Shown here piece after piece: positions 18,811 through 30,523 of a stretch of 30,597 bases of DNA. Every line of letters starts with the position of its first letter. Within the stretch, counting starts at the first letter, position 1. The stretch is from Escherichia phage ESSI2_ev040: the sequence record NC_049393.1. One strand, given 5' to 3'. The position numbers were made by a program, and so were the translations under genes. The notes under the pieces are model-generated. The model made no database searches. It worked only from the letters and a program-made list of their open reading frames with translations, and had not been told where the DNA came from.

Positions 18811-19868
18811 GTAAAAAGAAACGCTTTGTTAAGCGCGACCAGCGCGGCGACAAATCAAAAAAGATGAGCATTATCACATTCGGCAAACCTGAACCGGTTC
18901 TGACTACCGGCACAGATTACCGTGATATCTGGTACGACAATGCCGCCGATCACTTCACCCAGCCGATTGACCGGCTGGCACTCGCACAACTGATTAATCT
19001 TAACGGTCAGCACGGCGGCATCATTCACGCCCGTAAAAACATGATTGTTTCAGACTACCAGGGGGGCGGGCTTATTCACGACCAGCTGGAAGCGGCAGCG
19101 TTTGACTATATAACCTTTGGGGATATTGCGATTGCCAAAATTCGTAACGGCTGGGGCGATGTGATCGCACTTGAACCCTTGCCCGGTCTGTATATTCGCC
19201 GCCGCAAAGTCAGAGATAACGCGCTGGATAAGCCCGGCGACTACGTGGTGTTACAGGAAGGGGAACCACAGGTATGGCCAGAAGAAGATATTATCTTCAT
19301 CAAAATGTATGACCCGCAACAGCATATCTACGGACTGCCGGACTACATCGGCGGTGTGCATTCCGCGTTACTTAACAGTGAAGCGGTCATTTTCCGACGC
19401 CGCTATTACCACAACGGTGCGCACACTGGCGGTATTCTTTATACCCGCGATCCCAGCATGACGGACGAAATGGAGGAAGAAATTGAACAGCAGCTGCGTG
19501 ACAGCAAAGGGATCGGTAACTTCTCCACCATCCTTGTAAACATTCCTGGTGGAGACGGTGACGCCATCAAATTCATTGAAATGGGGGATATTTCCGCGAA
19601 GGATGAATTTGCCAACATCAAAAACATCAGCGCCCAGGACATTCTGAACGCGCACCGTTTCCCTGCTGGCCTCGCCGGTATTGTTCCGCAGAACACTGCC
19701 GGACTGGGGGATGTTGAAAAGGCTGAACGCATTTACAAGAAAAGCGAAATAGCCCCCATCCAGCGCCGTTTCATGCTGGCCGTTAACAACGATCCCGAAA
19801 TACCGGAAAGGCTACACCTTAACTTTGATTTAAGTTACACAGAATCAACGGATAAGGGTGCGGCATGA
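18807..19868 (+). CDS. Q: portal protein, P2 gpQ-like
   Basis: 353 aa, directly coupled to the terminase large subunit. Confidence 0.9.
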   Translation: MSKKKRFVKRDQRGDKSKKMSIITFGKPEPVLTTGTDYRDIWYDNAADHFTQPIDRLALAQLINLNGQHGGIIHARKNMIVSDYQGGGLIHDQLEAAAFDYITFGDIAIAKIRNGWGDVIALEPLPGLYIRRRKVRDNALDKPGDYVVLQEGEPQVWPEEDIIFIKMYDPQQHIYGLPDYIGGVHSALLNSEAVIFRRRYYHNGAHTGGILYTRDPSMTDEMEEEIEQQLRDSKGIGNFSTILVNIPGGDGDAIKFIEMGDISAKDEFANIKNISAQDILNAHRFPAGLAGIVPQNTAGLGDVEKAERIYKKSEIAPIQRRFMLAVNNDPEIPERLHLNFDLSYTESTDKGAA

Positions 19869-19918
19869 GGCGAAACAGGCTAAAATCCAGGCATCATTTA
19901 ACAGCTGGAGCATGGAAT

Positions 19919-20188
19919 ATGCGAGTTCTGAAAATCGAATGCCCGGAATGCGGCTCAAAGGCTGTTATTCGTAAAACGAACAGGAAGCACCGGCAGATTG
20001 CGGATATTTACTGCGCCTGTTCAGATGTTGAGTGTGGCCATACGTTTGTTATGAATCTGACGTTCTCCCACACTCTCAGCCCCAGCGCTAAAACGGGTGA
20101 TGCGATGGTGCAAAAAATACTGAATGCACTTTCACCCGATCAGCGCCAGATGGCATTAGACCTATTGAAAGCGACTCCCGCCGCCTGA
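19919..20188 (+). CDS. ogr: Ogr/Delta-family zinc-finger late transcription activator (track ORF starts 19865 with ATGA overlap to Q; ATG 19919 has a GGAG RBS)
   Basis: CPECG...(about 20 aa)...YCACSDVECGHTF matches the C-x2-C / C-x4-C Ogr/Delta zinc-finger pattern. Confidence 0.7.
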   Translation: MRVLKIECPECGSKAVIRKTNRKHRQIADIYCACSDVECGHTFVMNLTFSHTLSPSAKTGDAMVQKILNALSPDQRQMALDLLKATPAA

Positions 20189-23693: not shown

Positions 23694-24286
23694 TTTGCAC
23701 CGCCTTGCGCTAAAGCTTTGATGACACCTAATGTCATTTTGCAATCAGCTAAAGCACGGTGTGCCTTCCCCTCGATCACAACTCCTTCATGCGCGGCGGC
23801 ATCAACTAACTTATGCCATTTATAACCGTGATATTTCCCCGGCTCGCCACGATATTCTGCATATAGTTTCATTGCGCAAACAGAATGAGCAGCAAGCATC
23901 CATGGCGCACCTTCAGAAGGTCTTCCATTCAATGCGTAGGTCTGACGAATTAACCGGAGATCATAATCGGCGTTATAGATAACAAAGCCAAAACGTCTAA
24001 TAAGTTCTTCCACTGCGCCGCATATATCTGTCCACGCAGGAGCATAGGCAACCATTTCATTTGTGATCCCATGAATGGCAATTGCTTCATCAGGAATAGG
24101 CTTAGTAGGTTTAACAAGCGTGTTAAGCAGAATAAATCCATGGCTATCAATGATGCATATTTCTACTATTTCTGCATCATCACCCAGCCCCGTGGTTTCG
24201 GTATCAATAAATAGGCGATTATCGTCAAGCCACTGTTGTGCTAACAGGCTGATAGAATACTTCAATTGCTTAGTATTCAATTCCAT
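23690..24286 (-). CDS. DnaQ-like 3'-5' exonuclease (DEDDh family)
   Basis: Exo I FIDTETTG, Exo II NADYD, Exo III HRALADC; AGGAGGT RBS 5 nt upstream of ATG 24286. Confidence 0.75.
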
Positions 24287-24510
24287 GCTGCACCTCCTTT
24301 GCTGCAAATCGCCGCTGCTTCTTCGCGGATCAACTCAACGATTTCCGTTGCGCTTAAACCTTCATTGGCCGCATGAGTGGCCAACTTATCCAGACGGGTG
24401 GAACACAGATCAGCAGCTGCGGCTTTACCTTCCTGCGTGGCTTTGGTGAGCATGGCCAGCAGGTCGGTGCCTGATTTTGTTGCGGGTAAATCCTGACGTG
24501 TCATGTGCAT
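24277..24510 (-). CDS. hypothetical early protein (77 aa)
   Basis: ORF in the early operon; no motif recognised. Confidence 0.4.
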   Translation of the reverse strand: MHMTRQDLPATKSGTDLLAMLTKATQEGKAAAADLCSTRLDKLATHAANEGLSATEIVELIREEAAAICSKGGAAWN

Positions 24511-24577
24511 TTTGGTTTCCTTAAGGCAAAAGAATCCCCGGCCACTTGAACCGTGGCCAAAAAATTCAGGCTGTTAA

Positions 24578-24979
24578 TTAGTGAAAAGTGGGTTGTACTG
24601 TGGCGGCTGAGTAGTTCGGTGCCGGAATCAGGTGCAGCTCATAGGTTGTCCGCCACCACTCCTGTATCAGCGCTATTATCTCGCCAATTCCCAACGCCCC
24701 GGCTGTATAGAAAATTGCACGAATCCCCGCCAGCGCTTCTATCTGTGCTTCTTTGCTTTCCGCTTCGCGATACACGCAGCACCAGAAAGCAGCATTGATC
24801 GCCAGCCAGTGACGCGGATTTGTCATGTGTTCAGTGTCATTGAAGAAGAACGGATGCAAAGCGATACGCCCATTTTTACTGGTGCTTTTCTCTGCAAACG
24901 CTAAAGCGTAGTTATGTGGGACGCCCCACACAGCCAGCTCTGCCCCCAACAATTTGCCCTCAACGGAAATAATGGTCAT
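24578..24979 (-). CDS. hypothetical early protein (133 aa)
   Basis: ORF in the early operon with 1-nt overlap to the upstream gene. Confidence 0.5.
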   Translation of the reverse strand: MTIISVEGKLLGAELAVWGVPHNYALAFAEKSTSKNGRIALHPFFFNDTEHMTNPRHWLAINAAFWCCVYREAESKEAQIEALAGIRAIFYTAGALGIGEIIALIQEWWRTTYELHLIPAPNYSAATVQPTFH

Positions 24980-25407
24980 TAGTGATTCCCCTGCTGCTGC
25001 AACTTATGGACGATATGAGGCGCGATCACCATCTGCACCCCGCTACTGCTATAAATTGGATGTACTTTTTTGATCGGGCGGTTCGCGGTGCGTTTCGAAA
25101 AATCGCTGTCACGTAAACTGCCGAAACCTTCAAACGTTAACCGCGCCCGTGAAATGCCCTGCCGCAGTTGAATCATGTCCCGATAGCCCAGACGTTCATA
25201 AAGCTCCCGCCAGCAGCACTTACTTAAATGGGCTTTAAATGCCCCGGTACCAGATGTAACCGCAGCAGCATGAAGCACTACGCCGCGCCACTCCGGTGTT
25301 AAGTTGTCCCACCATTCAGCGGCCTCGCTGCTTTCGCTGAAGTATTTGCGGCGGATCTGTTTTAAATGCTCCAGCCCGCGCTTTTGCTGTTCCTGGCTAA
25401 TAGCCAT
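24979..25407 (-). CDS. hypothetical early protein (142 aa)
   Basis: ORF in the early operon; no motif recognised. Confidence 0.5.
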   Translation of the reverse strand: MAISQEQQKRGLEHLKQIRRKYFSESSEAAEWWDNLTPEWRGVVLHAAAVTSGTGAFKAHLSKCCWRELYERLGYRDMIQLRQGISRARLTFEGFGSLRDSDFSKRTANRPIKKVHPIYSSSGVQMVIAPHIVHKLQQQGNH

Positions 25408-25624
25408 AGCGCCCCCCTATACATCCAACCAGGCGACGGGCTTTTGTAGACAAGAAACGCAAAATCACCCCGCTTTTCATCCGAACAGGCTCATGCGCAT
25501 TGAATTTATACGTGTGGCCTGGGTTCCAGCGCTGACCGTTCGGCAGTTCTATCCAGCCCGTTGAACCACTCGGCGACTGCATGGCTGGAGATTCTTTTTT
25601 CAGGTAAGTGACAAACGCTTTCAT
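25397..25624 (-). CDS. hypothetical early protein (75 aa), in the position of 186 fil/dhr-type genes
   Basis: Small ORF directly downstream of cII. Confidence 0.4.
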   Translation of the reverse strand: MKAFVTYLKKESPAMQSPSGSTGWIELPNGQRWNPGHTYKFNAHEPVRMKSGVILRFLSTKARRLVGCIGGRYGY

Positions 25625-25633
25625 GGTGTTCCC

Positions 25634-26137
25634 TCACATCAGGCCGGTGGCGTTGGTAGTGACCAGATCCACCGCAGCGGCCAGAACAGGCGCAGAGTGA
25701 ATACGGCTTTCAACGGTATAAGCCAGCACGGATAAGCTACGGATTGCATCGCGGGCACGATCCAGAATTTGAGTACGGCGGGCGGCGGTCATATGGCCAG
25801 TTGATACGGCTTCCCCAGCAATCGCGCCCACACACGCAGTAGCGCTCAACGCGCAAAATTGCATGTTGGCTTCAGTGGCGTTATTGACTGGAACGGAGGG
25901 CAAGCAGTTAATCTGCCCCAGCATCCCATCAAGCAAACGAGCATCTTCCGTGTAATCGGTGATAGCCAGCAGCTCGTCACAGGTCAGGCGGTGCGGTTGA
26001 ACCGGGTTCAACTTATTGCGCAGGATCTGCGGACGCATACCAACGGCAGCGGCCACATCTTCCAGATTGTGCGACAGCGCAAACGCTCGGCAAGCTGCAT
26101 CAAAATGTGCATGTTTGGAAGTTTGGTAATCAAACAT
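25634..26137 (-). CDS. cII: CII-like lysogeny establishment activator (186 CII family)
   Basis: N-terminus MFDYQTSKHAHFDAACRAF...LRNKLNP resembles 186 CII as recalled; ATG 26137 with GAGGG RBS (track start 26146 is GTG). Confidence 0.7.
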   Translation of the reverse strand: MFDYQTSKHAHFDAACRAFALSHNLEDVAAAVGMRPQILRNKLNPVQPHRLTCDELLAITDYTEDARLLDGMLGQINCLPSVPVNNATEANMQFCALSATACVGAIAGEAVSTGHMTAARRTQILDRARDAIRSLSVLAYTVESRIHSAPVLAAAVDLVTTNATGLM

Positions 26138-26169
26138 AGTCAGCACCCTCTCTGCGTTTCAAAATCGAA

Positions 26170-26391
26170 TCAGTTAAGTACGATGTTGCAACCCGCGAGG
26201 GCGTCTATGGTCAGAGCCGCGATATTGATCATGACTTTTTCACGCCCCATATCTTTGCGAAGGCGGTGACGAGGCAAGCGGCCATCTTTCAACATCGCGT
26301 CAACGGTATCTTCTGGTAAACCAGTGAGTTCGATGTATTTATCTTTTGAGATAGAAGGGACGGGTAGATTGATTGAAATGTTAGTGGTCAT
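26170..26391 (-). CDS. apl: Apl/Cox-family excisionase and switch regulator
   Basis: 73 aa with HTH-like segment YIELTGLPEDTVDAMLKDGRLP; first gene of the early operon, divergent from cI. Confidence 0.55.
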   Translation of the reverse strand: MTTNISINLPVPSISKDKYIELTGLPEDTVDAMLKDGRLPRHRLRKDMGREKVMINIAALTIDALAGCNIVLN

Positions 26392-26526
26392 AGTGCAAGA
26401 TTCCTCGCTTGGAAGTTAACCGTGGCTAGCGGTGTTAAAAGGTGAACAACCTGTTTTGGAATGTTCGCCTGCAAAATAACTTTCCAAATGCGAAGTGTCA
26501 ACCAATAACTTTCCCGAGGCGGAATT
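26392..26526. promoter_or_regulatory. lysis-lysogeny switch region between apl and cI, with direct repeats AATAACTTTCC at 26475-26485 and 26504-26514
   Basis: Intergenic region between divergent apl and cI; 11-bp direct repeats and TTTTGGAA/TTCCAAA imperfect inverted repeat seen directly. Confidence 0.55.
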
Positions 26527-27147
26527 ATGGATCTCAAAAACGGAGGCCAGGCAGTTATAACCAGGCTCCTTGAAGCTTATGGATTTAAGACAAGGCAGGC
26601 TTTATGCGACCAATTGAAAGTATCAACAAGCACCATGGGAACGAGATGGATGCGTGATGTATTCCCAGCTGACTGGGTTATACAGTGCACAATCGAAACT
26701 GGTGCATCAGTAGAATGGCTATCGTTCGGAACAGGCGAGAAATTTCCCAACGGAACCAGCAAAAACGCAAATGAGAATGAAAATTCCGCAAATGAGAACT
26801 TGTTAGGTGATGTTGTTTCTGTTACCCGAAAAAAGGTAATAGATGGAAATTTATACGATTCTAATTTTTACATGCTCGACAAAGCCATGCTCCCATCCCA
26901 CCTCAGCAAACCCATTATTATTGTGGATGATGATGTCAGCTACTTAGCCGAGCAGAAAAATGATGAATTAACAGACGGTACATGGCTTGTTGAAATTGAA
27001 GGGCAAGTGAGCATAAAAGAGCTAATACGCATTCCAGTAGGCAGGGTTCGTGTAACCTCAGTGCCTGGTAGCGCTAGTTTTGAGTGCGGTATTGATGACT
27101 TAAAACCTATCGCAAAATGCCACTACTACCTGCTGACAGATGTTTGA
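26527..27147 (+). CDS. cI: CI immunity repressor (186 CI family)
   Basis: N-terminal LLEAYGF and ETGASVEWLSFGTGE motifs resemble the 186 CI repressor N-terminal domain; upstream of int on the same strand as in 186. Confidence 0.8.
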   Translation: MDLKNGGQAVITRLLEAYGFKTRQALCDQLKVSTSTMGTRWMRDVFPADWVIQCTIETGASVEWLSFGTGEKFPNGTSKNANENENSANENLLGDVVSVTRKKVIDGNLYDSNFYMLDKAMLPSHLSKPIIIVDDDVSYLAEQKNDELTDGTWLVEIEGQVSIKELIRIPVGRVRVTSVPGSASFECGIDDLKPIAKCHYYLLTDV

Positions 27148-27225
27148 TCGAGAGTGAAACAAACATTGACACTGTATAAATAAACAGTGAATCATACCCC
27201 TATAGCAAGTAATAAGGGGTATTGA

Positions 27226-28275
27226 ATGGCTATTCGTAAACTTGAAACGGGTAAATGGCTCTGTGAATGCTACCCTTCCGGACGTTCTGGGCGCAGGGTA
27301 CGAAAACAATTTGCAACCAAAGGTGAGGCAATGGCCTTTGAGCGCCACACAATGGATGAAGCCGCGTCTAAACCCTGGCTGGGGGATGTTGTTGATCGCC
27401 GCTCTTTAAAAGACATTGTAAACCTCTGGTATAAACTGCATGGCATATCTCTTACGGCTGGCGAACACGTATATGAAAAACTACTGCTGATCGTGGACGC
27501 ACTAGGAAACCCTCTGGCTACATCGCTAACCCCAAAAATGTTTGCTCATTACCGCGATAAACGCCTAACCGGAGAGATTTATTTCAGCGAAAAATGGAAG
27601 AATGGCGCTAGCCCTGTAACGGTTAATCTTGAGCAAAGTTATTTAAGCGGTGCCTTTAGTGAACTGATTCGCTTGGGTGAATGGCTTCAGCCAAACCCTC
27701 TTGAAAACATGCGAAAATTTACCATTGCTGAAAAGGAAATGGCCTGGCTGACACATGAACAGATTGCTGAACTTCTGTATGACTGCCAGCGTCAGAACAA
27801 GCTGTTGACGCTGGTTGTGAAGATTTGCCTCAGTACAGGGGCAAGGTGGAGAGAGGCCGTCAATCTGACAAGGTCTCAGGTAACGAAGTACCGCATCACT
27901 TTCACCAGAACGAAGGGAAAGAAAAACAGAAGCATCCCTATCAGCAAGGAGCTATATGAAGAGATCACCGTGCTGAAGGGGTTTAAGTTTTTTGATGATT
28001 ACTATTTTCAATTTGCATCAGTGATGGATAAAACTTCCATCATTCTGCCGCGAGGCCAGCTAACGCACGTTCTTCGCCACACCTTTGCTGCTCACTTTAT
28101 GATGTCCGGAGGAAACATACTCGCCCTTCAAAAAATACTGGGGCACCACGATATAAAAATGACTATGCGCTATGCCCACCTCGCGCCAGATCACCTTGAA
28201 ACTGCGTTAAGGTTTAACCCCTTAGCTACTATGCAAAATGGCGACAAAATGGCGGCAGCGGTTGCCACTCCCTAA
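27226..28275 (+). CDS. int: tyrosine integrase (P2/186-type)
   Basis: 349 aa; C-terminal catalytic region with HVLRHTFA and HHDIKMTMRYAHL (conserved His/Arg/Tyr). Confidence 0.9.
   Translation: MAIRKLETGKWLCECYPSGRSGRRVRKQFATKGEAMAFERHTMDEAASKPWLGDVVDRRSLKDIVNLWYKLHGISLTAGEHVYEKLLLIVDALGNPLATSLTPKMFAHYRDKRLTGEIYFSEKWKNGASPVTVNLEQSYLSGAFSELIRLGEWLQPNPLENMRKFTIAEKEMAWLTHEQIAELLYDCQRQNKLLTLVVKICLSTGARWREAVNLTRSQVTKYRITFTRTKGKKNRSIPISKELYEEITVLKGFKFFDDYYFQFASVMDKTSIILPRGQLTHVLRHTFAAHFMMSGGNILALQKILGHHDIKMTMRYAHLAPDHLETALRFNPLATMQNGDKMAAAVATP
28239..28260 (+). repeat. 22-bp direct repeat copy 1 (TGGCGACAAAATGGCGGCAGCG) inside the int 3' end; copy 2 at 28422-28443
   Basis: 21/22 identity between the two copies, seen directly. 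Confidence 0.8.
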
Positions 28276-28337
28276 CCTTTAATACTCCTAACTACTCTTT
28301 TAACTTATTGAGTTTAAAGCAAGTAATTGTTTTTCCT

Positions 28338-28366
28338 AACCCATTTATATAAATGGGTTTTTTGTT
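28338..28366 (+). terminator. rho-independent terminator after int
   Basis: Perfect 22-nt palindrome AACCCATTTATATAAATGGGTT followed by TTTTTTGTT. Confidence 0.7.
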
Positions 28367-28421
28367 GCCTGTTATATTAGTCTCTTAAAACCAACCACTT
28401 ACCCCCTCTCACTAAAGCCAT

Positions 28422-28443
28422 TGGCGACAAAATGGCGACAGCG
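28422..28443 (+). repeat. 22-bp direct repeat copy 2 (TGGCGACAAAATGGCGACAGCG) spanning the Abi_C-like ORF start
   Basis: 21/22 identity to 28239-28260; candidate att core or recombination scar. Confidence 0.8.
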
Positions 28444-29286
28444 TACAAACACGTTGATGGAGTCTATATGGGACGACAAATTCCGCAGCCAGTCATTTCA
28501 GTTTTATCTGACCACATGGCGGCAGTTGAAACACACGCAACCATGAATAGTTTATTCATGTACGCAGACGCTCCAGGGGATGCTCCAGATTTAGCAAAAC
28601 CAGCAAAGGCGCAGGATTGGCTTAGAAGAATCAACAAAGAATGTGATGACCCACTCGCAATTCTTGGTCGATTGATTGAAGGCTATATGGAAGCTGACCT
28701 GCCTAAAGGCAGCGTATTCAGTTGGGAGCAACCTAAGGTTGATTTCATAGAAAAGATGACTGATTTGCTTGGTCGGTACGGCCTGCGGTATCTAACTGGA
28801 GGTCATATTTCTGATGGGGCATCGCTTACTTCGGTTACTCTCAAAGAAGCGATTGGAAAACGCAACATACCTGCTGTTGAAATGGAGTTTTCCAGAGCGC
28901 TTGAAAATATCCACACTGATCCACGAGAAGCTGTCTCCGCAGCTTGTAACATTATGGAATCAACCTTTAAGGTTTACATCGCCGATGAGAAGCTGCCCAC
29001 CCCTGCTAAACAAGATTTGCAGGGACTCTGGAAAGTTGTCCGTGAATCCTTGGGGCTAGATACTAAAGCCGTTGAAGATGAAGACCTTAAACGTATTTTG
29101 AGTGGCTTATATTCGTTAACTGATGGGATCGGAGCTTTAAGAACTCATGCAAGTTCTGCCCATGGAGCCGGGAGAAAGATATATAACTTAAAACCTCGCC
29201 ATGCTCGGTTAGCTATAAATGCAGCACATACGTTAACTATGTATATCCTTGAATCTTGGGATGAGCAGAAACAAAAGAAATCTTAA
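28432..29286 (+). CDS. Abi_C-domain-like protein (putative abortive infection / exclusion protein); alternative start ATG 28468 has a GGAG RBS
   Basis: C-terminal LRTHASSAHGAG...KPRHARLAINAAHTLTMYILE resembles the Abi_C domain as recalled; AT-richer than the phage core; own terminator downstream. Confidence 0.45.
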   Translation: MATAYKHVDGVYMGRQIPQPVISVLSDHMAAVETHATMNSLFMYADAPGDAPDLAKPAKAQDWLRRINKECDDPLAILGRLIEGYMEADLPKGSVFSWEQPKVDFIEKMTDLLGRYGLRYLTGGHISDGASLTSVTLKEAIGKRNIPAVEMEFSRALENIHTDPREAVSAACNIMESTFKVYIADEKLPTPAKQDLQGLWKVVRESLGLDTKAVEDEDLKRILSGLYSLTDGIGALRTHASSAHGAGRKIYNLKPRHARLAINAAHTLTMYILESWDEQKQKKS

Positions 29287-29341
29287 CTACATGTTAGACA
29301 ACATGTTTTTCAGTTTTGAAATTATGTCATCTTCTATGAAT

Positions 29342-29376
29342 CCCGCGCCAGTTCTCGCTTTGCGGGTTTTTCTTTG
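29342..29376 (+). terminator. putative rho-independent terminator after the Abi_C-like gene
   Basis: GC stem CCCGC(G)...(T)GCGGG followed by TTTTTCTTTGTT. Confidence 0.5.
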
Positions 29377-29632
29377 TTCGCCTCACCTCAAGATTTTGAT
29401 CTTCTGGCCTAACATAAAATAAATAATACCATTATTTATCAGATAGTTATTATTACTTATCGATCCTCCGTAGATCTATAAAAATGGAAAAAGCTGAAAT
29501 TCTTTTCAATCTTTTCAGTTACAGTTCTCCAGCAAGCCTCCAGCAGTGGCGCGGCCTAGCGATACCGTTTGTAGAAAAATAAAACTGAAAAAATTTCCAG
29601 ATCCAGAAACCGCAGGCGGGTGCCAGAGTAGA

Positions 29633-29665
29633 TCGTCGGCAGCGTCAGATGTGTATAAGAGACAG
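29633..29665 (+). other. exact Illumina Nextera Read-1 transposase adapter (TCGTCGGCAGCGTCAGATGTGTATAAGAGACAG) embedded in the sequence
   Basis: 33/33 nt match to the widely used adapter, including the synthetic Tn5 mosaic end; no second inverted end or transposase nearby. Confidence 0.9.
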
Positions 29666-29968
29666 GTGTAGCGCCGTTTTTGTCTGCGAAAGATTTATTT
29701 CTCTATCATATGACCATACCAGCGTAACGCCACGCTTCGGATCTTTTACACTTGGTGCGCGGGATTGGGTTTGTTACTAAAGGGGTTAAAATGCGTCTGG
29801 CTACGTCTATGACGATGTGAGAAATAGATTTATGACAGTAACCCAACTAAATCATTTTGGATGAAGTAGTCCACTATCAGATCGAACCACATAACCTAGT
29901 GTTGCTAGCAGAAAATCAGACCATTCCCATGTTACGATAATCGTCAGGATTATTGGGACGGACAATTT

Positions 29969-30523
29969 ATGAGCAGCAGCAAAAAAACGCACTACGAGGA
30001 AATGAAGCAGTTATTGTGCGCGGACATACTGAGTAACAGTAAAAAATTCTCATGGAGAAGAATCATACTACGTTGCTGGAGACAGCCCGGATACCGGTTC
30101 ATGTGTTGGTGGAGAATAGCGAATTGCCTTTACTGCCAGGGTGGGAGAGCAAGAGTGAAATGGGCGCGAAGAATCCACCGGAGACTTGTTTCAAAATATA
30201 ATACTGATATTGGGTTGGGGGCACAGATCGGGGAAAAATTCAAAATTTATCACTTCGTTGGAATAGTCATTTGTCCCCAGGCTGTGATTGGTAAGAATGT
30301 GCGTATCCGTCAAAACATAACAATTGGATTAAAAACAGTTGAGGGAATCAAAGCCATCAGGATCGGAGACAATGTCGAGATTGGTGCAAATTCGTGCATC
30401 ATCGGTGATGACCTGACTATTGGTGATAACGTGACAATTGGCGCTATGTCATTTGTTAACAGAGACGTCCCCGCCAATAGCGTTTATATAACCCGCAAAA
30501 GCCATACAATCACCACTGCCTGA
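29969..30523 (+). CDS. hexapeptide-repeat acetyltransferase (left-handed beta-helix family, WbbJ/WcaB-like)
   Basis: 184 aa; repeated [LIV]-G-x-x-x-x hexapeptide units (IGKNVRI, IGDNVEIG, IGDNVTIG); AT-rich, outside the phage core. Confidence 0.6.
   Translation: MSSSKKTHYEEMKQLLCADILSNSKKFSWRRIILRCWRQPGYRFMCWWRIANCLYCQGGRARVKWARRIHRRLVSKYNTDIGLGAQIGEKFKIYHFVGIVICPQAVIGKNVRIRQNITIGLKTVEGIKAIRIGDNVEIGANSCIIGDDLTIGDNVTIGAMSFVNRDVPANSVYITRKSHTITTA

Follow-up and report, generated by a model that had tools for sequence, protein, structure and literature searches.

Direct repeats beside the integrase gene of Escherichia phage ESSI2_ev040 as putative P- and P'-arm sites of a 186-type attP

Tandem direct-repeat arm sites on both sides of the core are a textbook feature of the phage attachment sites (attP) of lambda, P2 and 186. 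In lambda attP the arm-type sites P1, P2 and P'1-3 flank the core and are unlike it in sequence, the N-terminal domain of the integrase (Int) binds them, integration host factor (IHF), Xis and Fis take part, IHF by bending the DNA, and the sites are split between the prophage junctions attL and attR upon integration. P2 attP comprises two direct repeats per arm with the consensus tgTGGaCa, and IHF and Cox are its accessory factors. In the record of phage 186 (U32222) Int arm-type sites with the consensus YAYCGCCAYTY, three to the left of attP and two to the right, are given as predicted, together with IHF footprints on both sides of the core, Apl and CI sites and a core derived from tRNA-Ile (the 3' end of ileY). 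Such repeats were described by Nilsson et al. in all P2-like phages and prophages except PhiO18P, with tgTGGaCa as the P2-type and tgccGCCActt as the 186-type consensus. The present analysis concerns the genome of Escherichia phage ESSI2_ev040 (NC_049393.1; 30,597 nucleotides, the whole of which is called the window below), where a 22-bp direct repeat brackets the 3' end of the integrase gene, int. These repeats are very probably the P- and P'-arm arm-type Int-binding sites of an intact attP belonging to a 186-type, P2-like temperate phage.

The two copies, TGGCGACAAAATGGCGGCAGCG (28239-28260) and TGGCGACAAAATGGCGACAGCG (28422-28443), are located on the plus strand, 183 bp from start to start with 161 bp in between, and are identical at 21 of 22 positions; the near-perfect repeat noticed in a sequence-only reading of this DNA is thereby confirmed with its coordinates. 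A search of the window allowing up to three mismatches returned two 22-mer matches in total and no third copy, and the pair gave 0 matches in 100 dinucleotide-preserving shuffles. Each 22-mer is built of two tandem 8-mers, TGGCGRCA, with a pitch of 11 bp. In the P arm these putative sites are TGGCGACA (28239-28246) and TGGCGGCA (28250-28257), which on the minus strand read TGTCGCCATTT (28236-28246) and TGCCGCCATTT (28247-28257); in the P' arm TGGCGACA is found twice (28422-28429 and 28433-28440). The degenerate pattern TGGCGRCANNNTGGCGRCA occurs at the same two places of the window only, and the 8-mers starting at 28239, 28250 and 28422, 28433 bracket the attP core at 28353-28366. The int gene itself (27226-28275, plus strand) is an open reading frame (ORF) for a tyrosine integrase of the 186 type, 349 aa long, with the Pfam domains Int_N and Phage_integrase; its stop codon occupies 28273-28275 and the first repeat copy falls in codons about 338-345. 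The protein is identical (100%) to Int of phage ESSI2_ev129 (LR597640; Peduoviridae, Quadragintavirus; ev129 below) and has 54% identity with 186 Int across 339 aa, N-terminal residues 1-45 included.

The likeness to 186 extends from the protein to the sites. On the strand opposite int the window motif reads TGYCGCCATTT (YGYCGCCAYTT as a consensus), which differs from the 186 consensus YAYCGCCAYTY in having R for A at position 2, and three of the four window half-sites match YRYCGCCAYTY exactly, the fourth having one mismatch. In the direction of int, the 186 arm next to int carries ATGGCGATAaagTGGCGGTA and the far arm carries TGGCGATAgaaTGGCGGTG. In both phages the core is flanked on either side by tandem sites of 11-bp pitch whose consensus is read on the strand opposite int, and in both a terminator and then TTTTTGTTGCCT precede the P' sites, in the order cI-int-attP. 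The window switch genes are likewise of the 186 type (CI with Phage_CI_repr and CI_C domains, CII of the CP76 family). Unlike 186, whose core is a 36-bp tRNA-Ile 3' end, the window has a 14-bp core in an intergenic terminator T-run; its attP spans 205 bp versus 259 bp in 186, its P-arm sites overlap the int codons near the stop whereas in 186 orf69 separates int from attP, and no recognisable Apl homologue was found in the window. In comparison to P2, the arm consensus is of the 186 type and the switch is the cI/cII-containing one of 186, not C/Cox.

The sequence which the phage has in common with its host lies between the two repeats and not in them. The core ATGGGTTTTTTGTT (28353-28366, 14 bp) is identical to the E. 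coli bacterial attachment site (attB) between ybjL and rcdA, forms the T-run of the int terminator and is present in a single copy in the window. That terminator (28338-28365, plus strand), which had rightly been placed in the 161-bp interval, was seen by a terminator scan and as an inverted repeat; it consists of the hairpin AACCCATTTAT/ATAAATGGGTT followed by the T-run. The hairpin (28338-28359) is kept among relatives and its 3' half overlaps the core, and conservation of the phage attP runs past the core through GCCTG, to 28371. A tRNA target, as in 186 and in phage ESSI2_ev015 (ev015 below), was considered and rejected: the window contains no tRNA or tmRNA gene, so its core is not a tRNA 3' end.

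The core and the split of the arms were examined in two integrated relatives, E. coli 1008S19 and 300709. A megablast search of E. coli with 27900-29630 found no genome covering more than 27% of the query; it yielded related integrases beside rcdA, with 77-87% nucleotide identity, and both of those examined, in 1008S19 and 300709, adjoin this gene. Strain 1008S19 has a complete P2-like prophage between ybjL and rcdA. Its attR runs from TGGCGACAAAGTGGCGGCAGCG through the int stop codon to AACCCGTTTACATAAATGGGTTTTTTGTT, directly followed by ATCTAAAATTTATCTA and rcdA (written over the core, TGGCGACAAAGTGGCGGCAGCG...ATGGGTTTTTTGTTATCTA...rcdA), and its attL runs from ybjL to GGTTGATGGGTTTTTTGTT, directly followed by GCCTG, 50 nt, TGGCGACAAAATGGCGGCAGCG and then ogr (written over the core, ybjL...GATGGGTTTTTTGTTGCCTG, 50 nt and TGGCGACAAAATGGCGGCAGCG). 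Only ATGGGTTTTTTGTT is common to these two junctions. In 300709 the attR holds the exact 22-mer TGGCGACAAAATGGCGGCAGCG, and the attL consists of GATGGGTTTTTTGTTGCCTG, 50 nt and TGGCGACAAAGTGGCGACACAA, is identical to the stretch 3' of the ev129 core, P' arm included, and leads into the same acetyltransferase gene. In either lysogen the int-embedded copy is found in attR beside rcdA and the other copy in attL beside ybjL, and both arm pairs stand on the phage side of the junctions. Each end of the prophage in these integrated relatives therefore carries one 22-mer; the two lie within the prophage and represent the P and P' arms, not a duplicated core. In the window the sequence is TATAAATGGGTTTTTTGTTGCCTG, where the flank of attR on the int side meets the flank of attL on the phage side, the arrangement of an attP. 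To judge by the compared sequences, strand exchange must take place inside 28353-28366, and the junctions predicted for a lysogen of the window phage are GGTTGATGGGTTTTTTGTTGCCTGTTATATT (attL) and ATAAATGGGTTTTTTGTTATCTAAAA (attR).

When the empty attB was rebuilt by joining the ybjL flank of attL to the rcdA flank of attR, the resulting sequence was found uninterrupted in 4227 of 5426 complete E. coli genomes, with 100% identity over 341 nt among the matches listed. Neither the 22-mer nor the tandem arm motif is present in this empty site. A comparison of this kind had been proposed together with the idea that the repeat is the att core or a scar, and its outcome goes the other way. It is true that short direct repeats beside an integrase 3' end resemble att cores, and that this repeat is highly non-random. 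That the 22-mer itself is the core, either as attL and attR of a small inserted element or as a remnant of successive integrations, is nevertheless scarcely credible, since host and phage have only ATGGGTTTTTTGTT in common, both relatives carry the 14-mer at their junctions with one 22-mer each 69 or 114 bp away on the phage side, and the single core copy of the window leaves none to bracket remnant DNA. Moreover, the same two-copy layout, with the copies 183 bp apart (182 bp in one case), recurs in four other unintegrated genomes or contigs. The repeat is thus part of the attachment-site apparatus of the integrase, as had been suspected, but it is not the core, a scar or a capture junction.

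This layout was compared in five intact attP sites, namely those of the window, ev129 and three metagenomic viral contigs in which attP is intact (L018, L019 and L087). With the first core base as reference, the window, ev129, L018 and L087 have tandem pairs starting at -114 and +69; L019 has its second pair at +68, which gives a copy spacing of 182 bp. The two lysogens conform to the same geometry, with the -114 pair in attR and the +69 pair in attL. Four conserved islands emerge from the alignment of the five sites: the P-arm pair, a block with AACTTATTG, the hairpin and core through GCCTG, and the P' pair. Between the last two lies a P'-arm spacer (28372-28421, 50 nt) whose length is kept and whose sequence is variable; it could not be aligned between the window, ev129, L018/L019 and L087/1008S19. 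The ev129 P' 22-mer differs at 5 positions, all of them outside both 8-mers and their spacing. In 300709 an insertion with a Gly-rich ORF cuts the int ORF short (the product ends in ATMKSY), and the 22-mer persists with the leftover int-tail codons as non-coding DNA, still at -114 from the core. Since the 22-mer holds this position even when detached from the int ORF, the constraint acts on the DNA and not on the C-terminal tail of Int. An intact attP of about 205 bp (28239-28443) with two tandem pairs in conserved geometry and at fixed helical positions relative to the core, a 14-bp core, a host site which is usually empty and a split in lysogens is what these comparisons show, and the conserved geometry, the split and the fit to the 186 consensus taken together identify the repeats as probable P and P' arm-type sites.

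Some variation on this plan was also noticed. The insertion in 300709 (L003 3455-3769, NZ_CP025903) encodes a 104-aa ORF of tandem PGGG(L/M)YTG-like repeats and is situated between the body of int and the tail that encodes the arm site. In one contig (L022 about 4165-4190, IMGVR_UViG_3300011506_000010) GTCGACAAAATGGCGACTG is found about 25 nt past the core, versus 55 nt elsewhere; the P' arm may have been shortened or rearranged here. Another contig (L020 about 4180-4255, IMGVR_UViG_2775507005_000001) has a long (CACCAA)n array 3' of the core in place of the P' spacer.

The window is an unintegrated P2/186-like E. coli phage genome (Peduoviridae, Quadragintavirus-like) and not an integrated prophage. 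Over positions 19-26140, which hold the structural and replication genes, the identity to ev015 is 98.3%, and over positions 24277-28371, which hold the immunity, int and attP module, the identity to ev129 is 97.5%. Within the latter, the cI-int-attP module (26500-28371) reaches 99.6%, and this DNA identity takes in the P arm and the core. Both ev015 and ev129 are virion-derived Peduoviridae (Quadragintavirus) of about 30.6-30.9 kb with the gene order of the window. A stretch of 43 bp at 29624-29666 comprises AGAGTAGA, TCGTCGGCAGCGTC and AGATGTGTATAAGAGACAG, which we take to be an Illumina Nextera adapter with its i5 index, the sequence next to it and the mosaic end, in this order. The same adapter stands at both ends of the ev129 record and at the start of the ev015 record, which ends at the window equivalent of 29623. 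From the embedded adapter the window is recognised as a circularly permuted contig of phage DNA, in which the adapter links the two termini as an assembly artefact, and the attachment site of such an unintegrated contig should be an intact attP. The suggestion of a third copy beyond the left prophage end therefore started from a wrong premise.

The similarity to ev129 ends abruptly at 28371/28372, which is five bases beyond the end of the core and leaves 50 bp to the second repeat copy, and from this point on the two genomes are unrelated apart from the arm 8-mers. At least four different modules of P' arm and cargo are found on the same core. The cargo past the second copy is an Abi_C gene in the window, an acetyltransferase gene in ev129 (a serine acetyltransferase) and 300709, and ogr in 1008S19 and L087, and it was this side of the locus that had led to the alternative proposal that the repeat marks the place where the Abi_C cassette was captured, for instance by illegitimate or short-homology recombination between the copies. 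The variable cargo speaks in its favour. A capture junction is nonetheless very improbable, because the homology breaks 50 bp upstream of the second copy and not at it, ev129 with its other cargo keeps a copy of its own at 183 bp, the P' copy is present in all five intact attP sites, and it stays at +69 (+68 in L019) in the face of different cargo genes and spacers. A second copy retained at a fixed position next to unrelated cargo points to selection on the site itself and not to a by-product of capture.

That the sharp mosaic boundary falls at the edge of the core is the one somewhat unusual feature here. It might reflect Int-catalysed recombination between elements sharing att specificity, an idea which we regard as rather doubtful. 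If it were true, exchange of the attP x attL or attP x attP kind between co-resident phages and prophages would swap whole modules (Abi_C, acetyltransferase or the ogr side) at the core. A weaker addition to this idea is that Int occupancy of the P' site could modulate expression of the cargo.

The distribution of the tandem motif was followed in a scan with one genome per species, in which an Int homologue was sought within an 8-kb locus. Among the matches listed, an Int homologue (40-88% identity) accompanied the motif within 8 kb at 22 of 120 loci, and at 21 of these 22 no more than about 90 nt separated the motif from the int 3' end; at the remaining locus the distance was 1189 nt, as in the 300709 insertion case. 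The other 98 of the 120 had no Int homologue within 8 kb and comprise both probable attL-type ends and chance matches in unrelated phyla, so that the 22 loci with Int were the informative ones. Six loci of Vibrio and Vibrionaceae (L091, L094, L104, L130, L198 and L199) contain the exact tandem motif close to an Int homologue, about 90 nt or less from its 3' end, on the other strand relative to int, and the orientation of arm sites may thus differ in some lineages.

These data bear on a further alternative, in which the tandem 8-mers would be operators for another protein (CI, an Apl-like protein or a regulator of the cargo gene) and their position around the core would be secondary. Binding of Int at the 8-mers is a prediction from sequence, the P' pair stands 24-45 nt before the start codon of abi, a possible spot for a promoter or operator, and Apl and CI sites are dispersed over this part of phage 186, all of which is compatible with operators. 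The proposal is still very unlikely. Within the window the TGGCGRCA tandem motif occurs at two places only, and the stretch around 26400-26530, where the cI/apl switch lies, has none. Across genera the motif accompanies Int homologues, in most cases no more than about 90 nt from the int 3' end, and its sequence fits the consensus of the 186 type that is assigned to arm binding by Int. Furthermore, ev015, whose Int is a different one, has another tandem motif at the equivalent two positions flanking a tRNA-like core.

The ev015 site deserves a description of its own. Its motif, TGYCCCCT, appears as TGCCCCTTTTCTGTCCCCT in the int 3' end and as TGTCCCCTTTTTGTCCCCT about 227 bp downstream (located by eye), on either side of a tRNA-like core which matches the tRNA-derived part of the 186 core (attP parts at L002 28320-28338, 28425-28480 and 28547-28565). 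On the other strand this motif comes closer to GGGGACA of the P2 type. Independent combination of core and arm specificities is suggested by the pairing of a 186-like core with a different arm motif.

With the repeats read as arm-type sites, the following course of events can be proposed by analogy to lambda, P2 and 186. The N-terminal domain of Int, a heterobivalent protein, would bind the four 8-mers, two per arm and one helical turn apart, while the core-binding and catalytic domains would bind 28353-28366. IHF would bend the P arm, probably at about 28301-28313, so that arm-bound Int reaches the core, and the resulting intasome would capture naked attB in the ybjL terminator and exchange strands with the identical 14 bp of the E. 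coli ybjL-rcdA intergenic terminator. The candidate IHF site (28301-28313, minus strand) is TAACTTATTGAGT, with one mismatch to YAANNNNTTGATW; the AACTTATTG block is unchanged across the five attP sequences, and L018 and L019 match the IHF consensus perfectly (TAACTTATTGATT). Because the core is a terminator T-run in both partners, integration keeps the ybjL terminator intact and gives int its own. Excision would need a directionality factor, probably the small ORF that takes the place of apl/cox in the lysis-lysogeny switch (26170-26391, minus strand, 73 codons, 72 aa). For this ORF neither a Pfam family nor any similarity to 186 Apl could be detected, and it may be an unclassified excisionase or a repressor. 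The parallel with lambda covers arm sites unlike the core, their recognition by the N-terminal domain, bending by IHF and the split into attL and attR; the sequences are unrelated, the number and orientation of sites are different, and arm sites do not overlap lambda int.

Several points weigh against the assignment of the repeats to Int. One pyrimidine position of the 186 consensus is not matched by the first P' half-site (TGTCGCCAATG), there are 2+2 sites in the window versus 2+3 in 186, and the IHF-like site carries its one consensus mismatch. Even in 186 the arm sites are annotated as predicted only, and those of the window are accordingly putative, as is physical binding of Int (and IHF) to them, which is argued here from related systems. 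As the putative excisionase lacks similarity to Apl, the excision side of the model is a matter of position only. On balance the element is a typical, well-understood 186-type attP which was previously unannotated and which changes no concept; in the ev129 record attP and arm sites are unannotated as well, and literature searches on ybjL-linked prophages, on 186 arm-type sites and Apl and on ev129 brought nothing relevant.

The practical gain is that attP of this phage group is fixed at about 28236-28443 with the core at 28353-28366, and that the host target is named as the ybjL-rcdA intergenic terminator of E. coli. The window can be treated as a free phage genome. For relatives exact prophage boundaries become available; many prophage calls in IMG/VR stop at the int stop codon, so that the P arm and the core are missed.

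The gene directly after the P' arm, outside attP, is a cargo gene for an Abi_C/AbiJ-like abortive-infection protein (28468-29286, plus strand; Pfam Abi_C, PADLOC AbiJ), and its start is corrected here. The second repeat copy had been said to span the first ATG of the Abi_C-like ORF, and it does span the first in-frame ATG (28432) of the longest ORF. All 8 aligned homologues (269-278 aa), however, start at the residue aligned with M13 of this long ORF, and the ATG at 28468 has GGAG 5 nt upstream; the true start is therefore most likely 28468, which makes the second copy non-coding and places its end 24 nt before the start codon. About 1950 Abi_C homologues were found in Enterobacterales, Acinetobacter, Vibrio and others, about 268-280 aa in length among the matches listed, and the comparison of the protein with a phage collection gave two weak matches only, which were uninformative on the start. 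A promoter scan of 28100-28600 detected no consensus promoter; by eye, a weak promoter-like TTGGCG-17-TACAAA overlaps the P' tandem site just upstream of abi.

Two further genes of the window were noted. A hexapeptide-repeat acetyltransferase gene is located in the window at 29969-30523, beyond the adapter and termini, and a similar gene stands directly 3' of attP in ev129 and ev015 (L001 29934-30551; L002 28696-29322). The distance from the termini to the 567-aa gene is about 915 bp in the window versus about 160 bp in ev129. An Ogr/Delta-like zinc-finger gene lies in the window at 19865-20188 beside the portal gene, and ogr or B adjoins attP in P2, 186 and the 1008S19 prophage.

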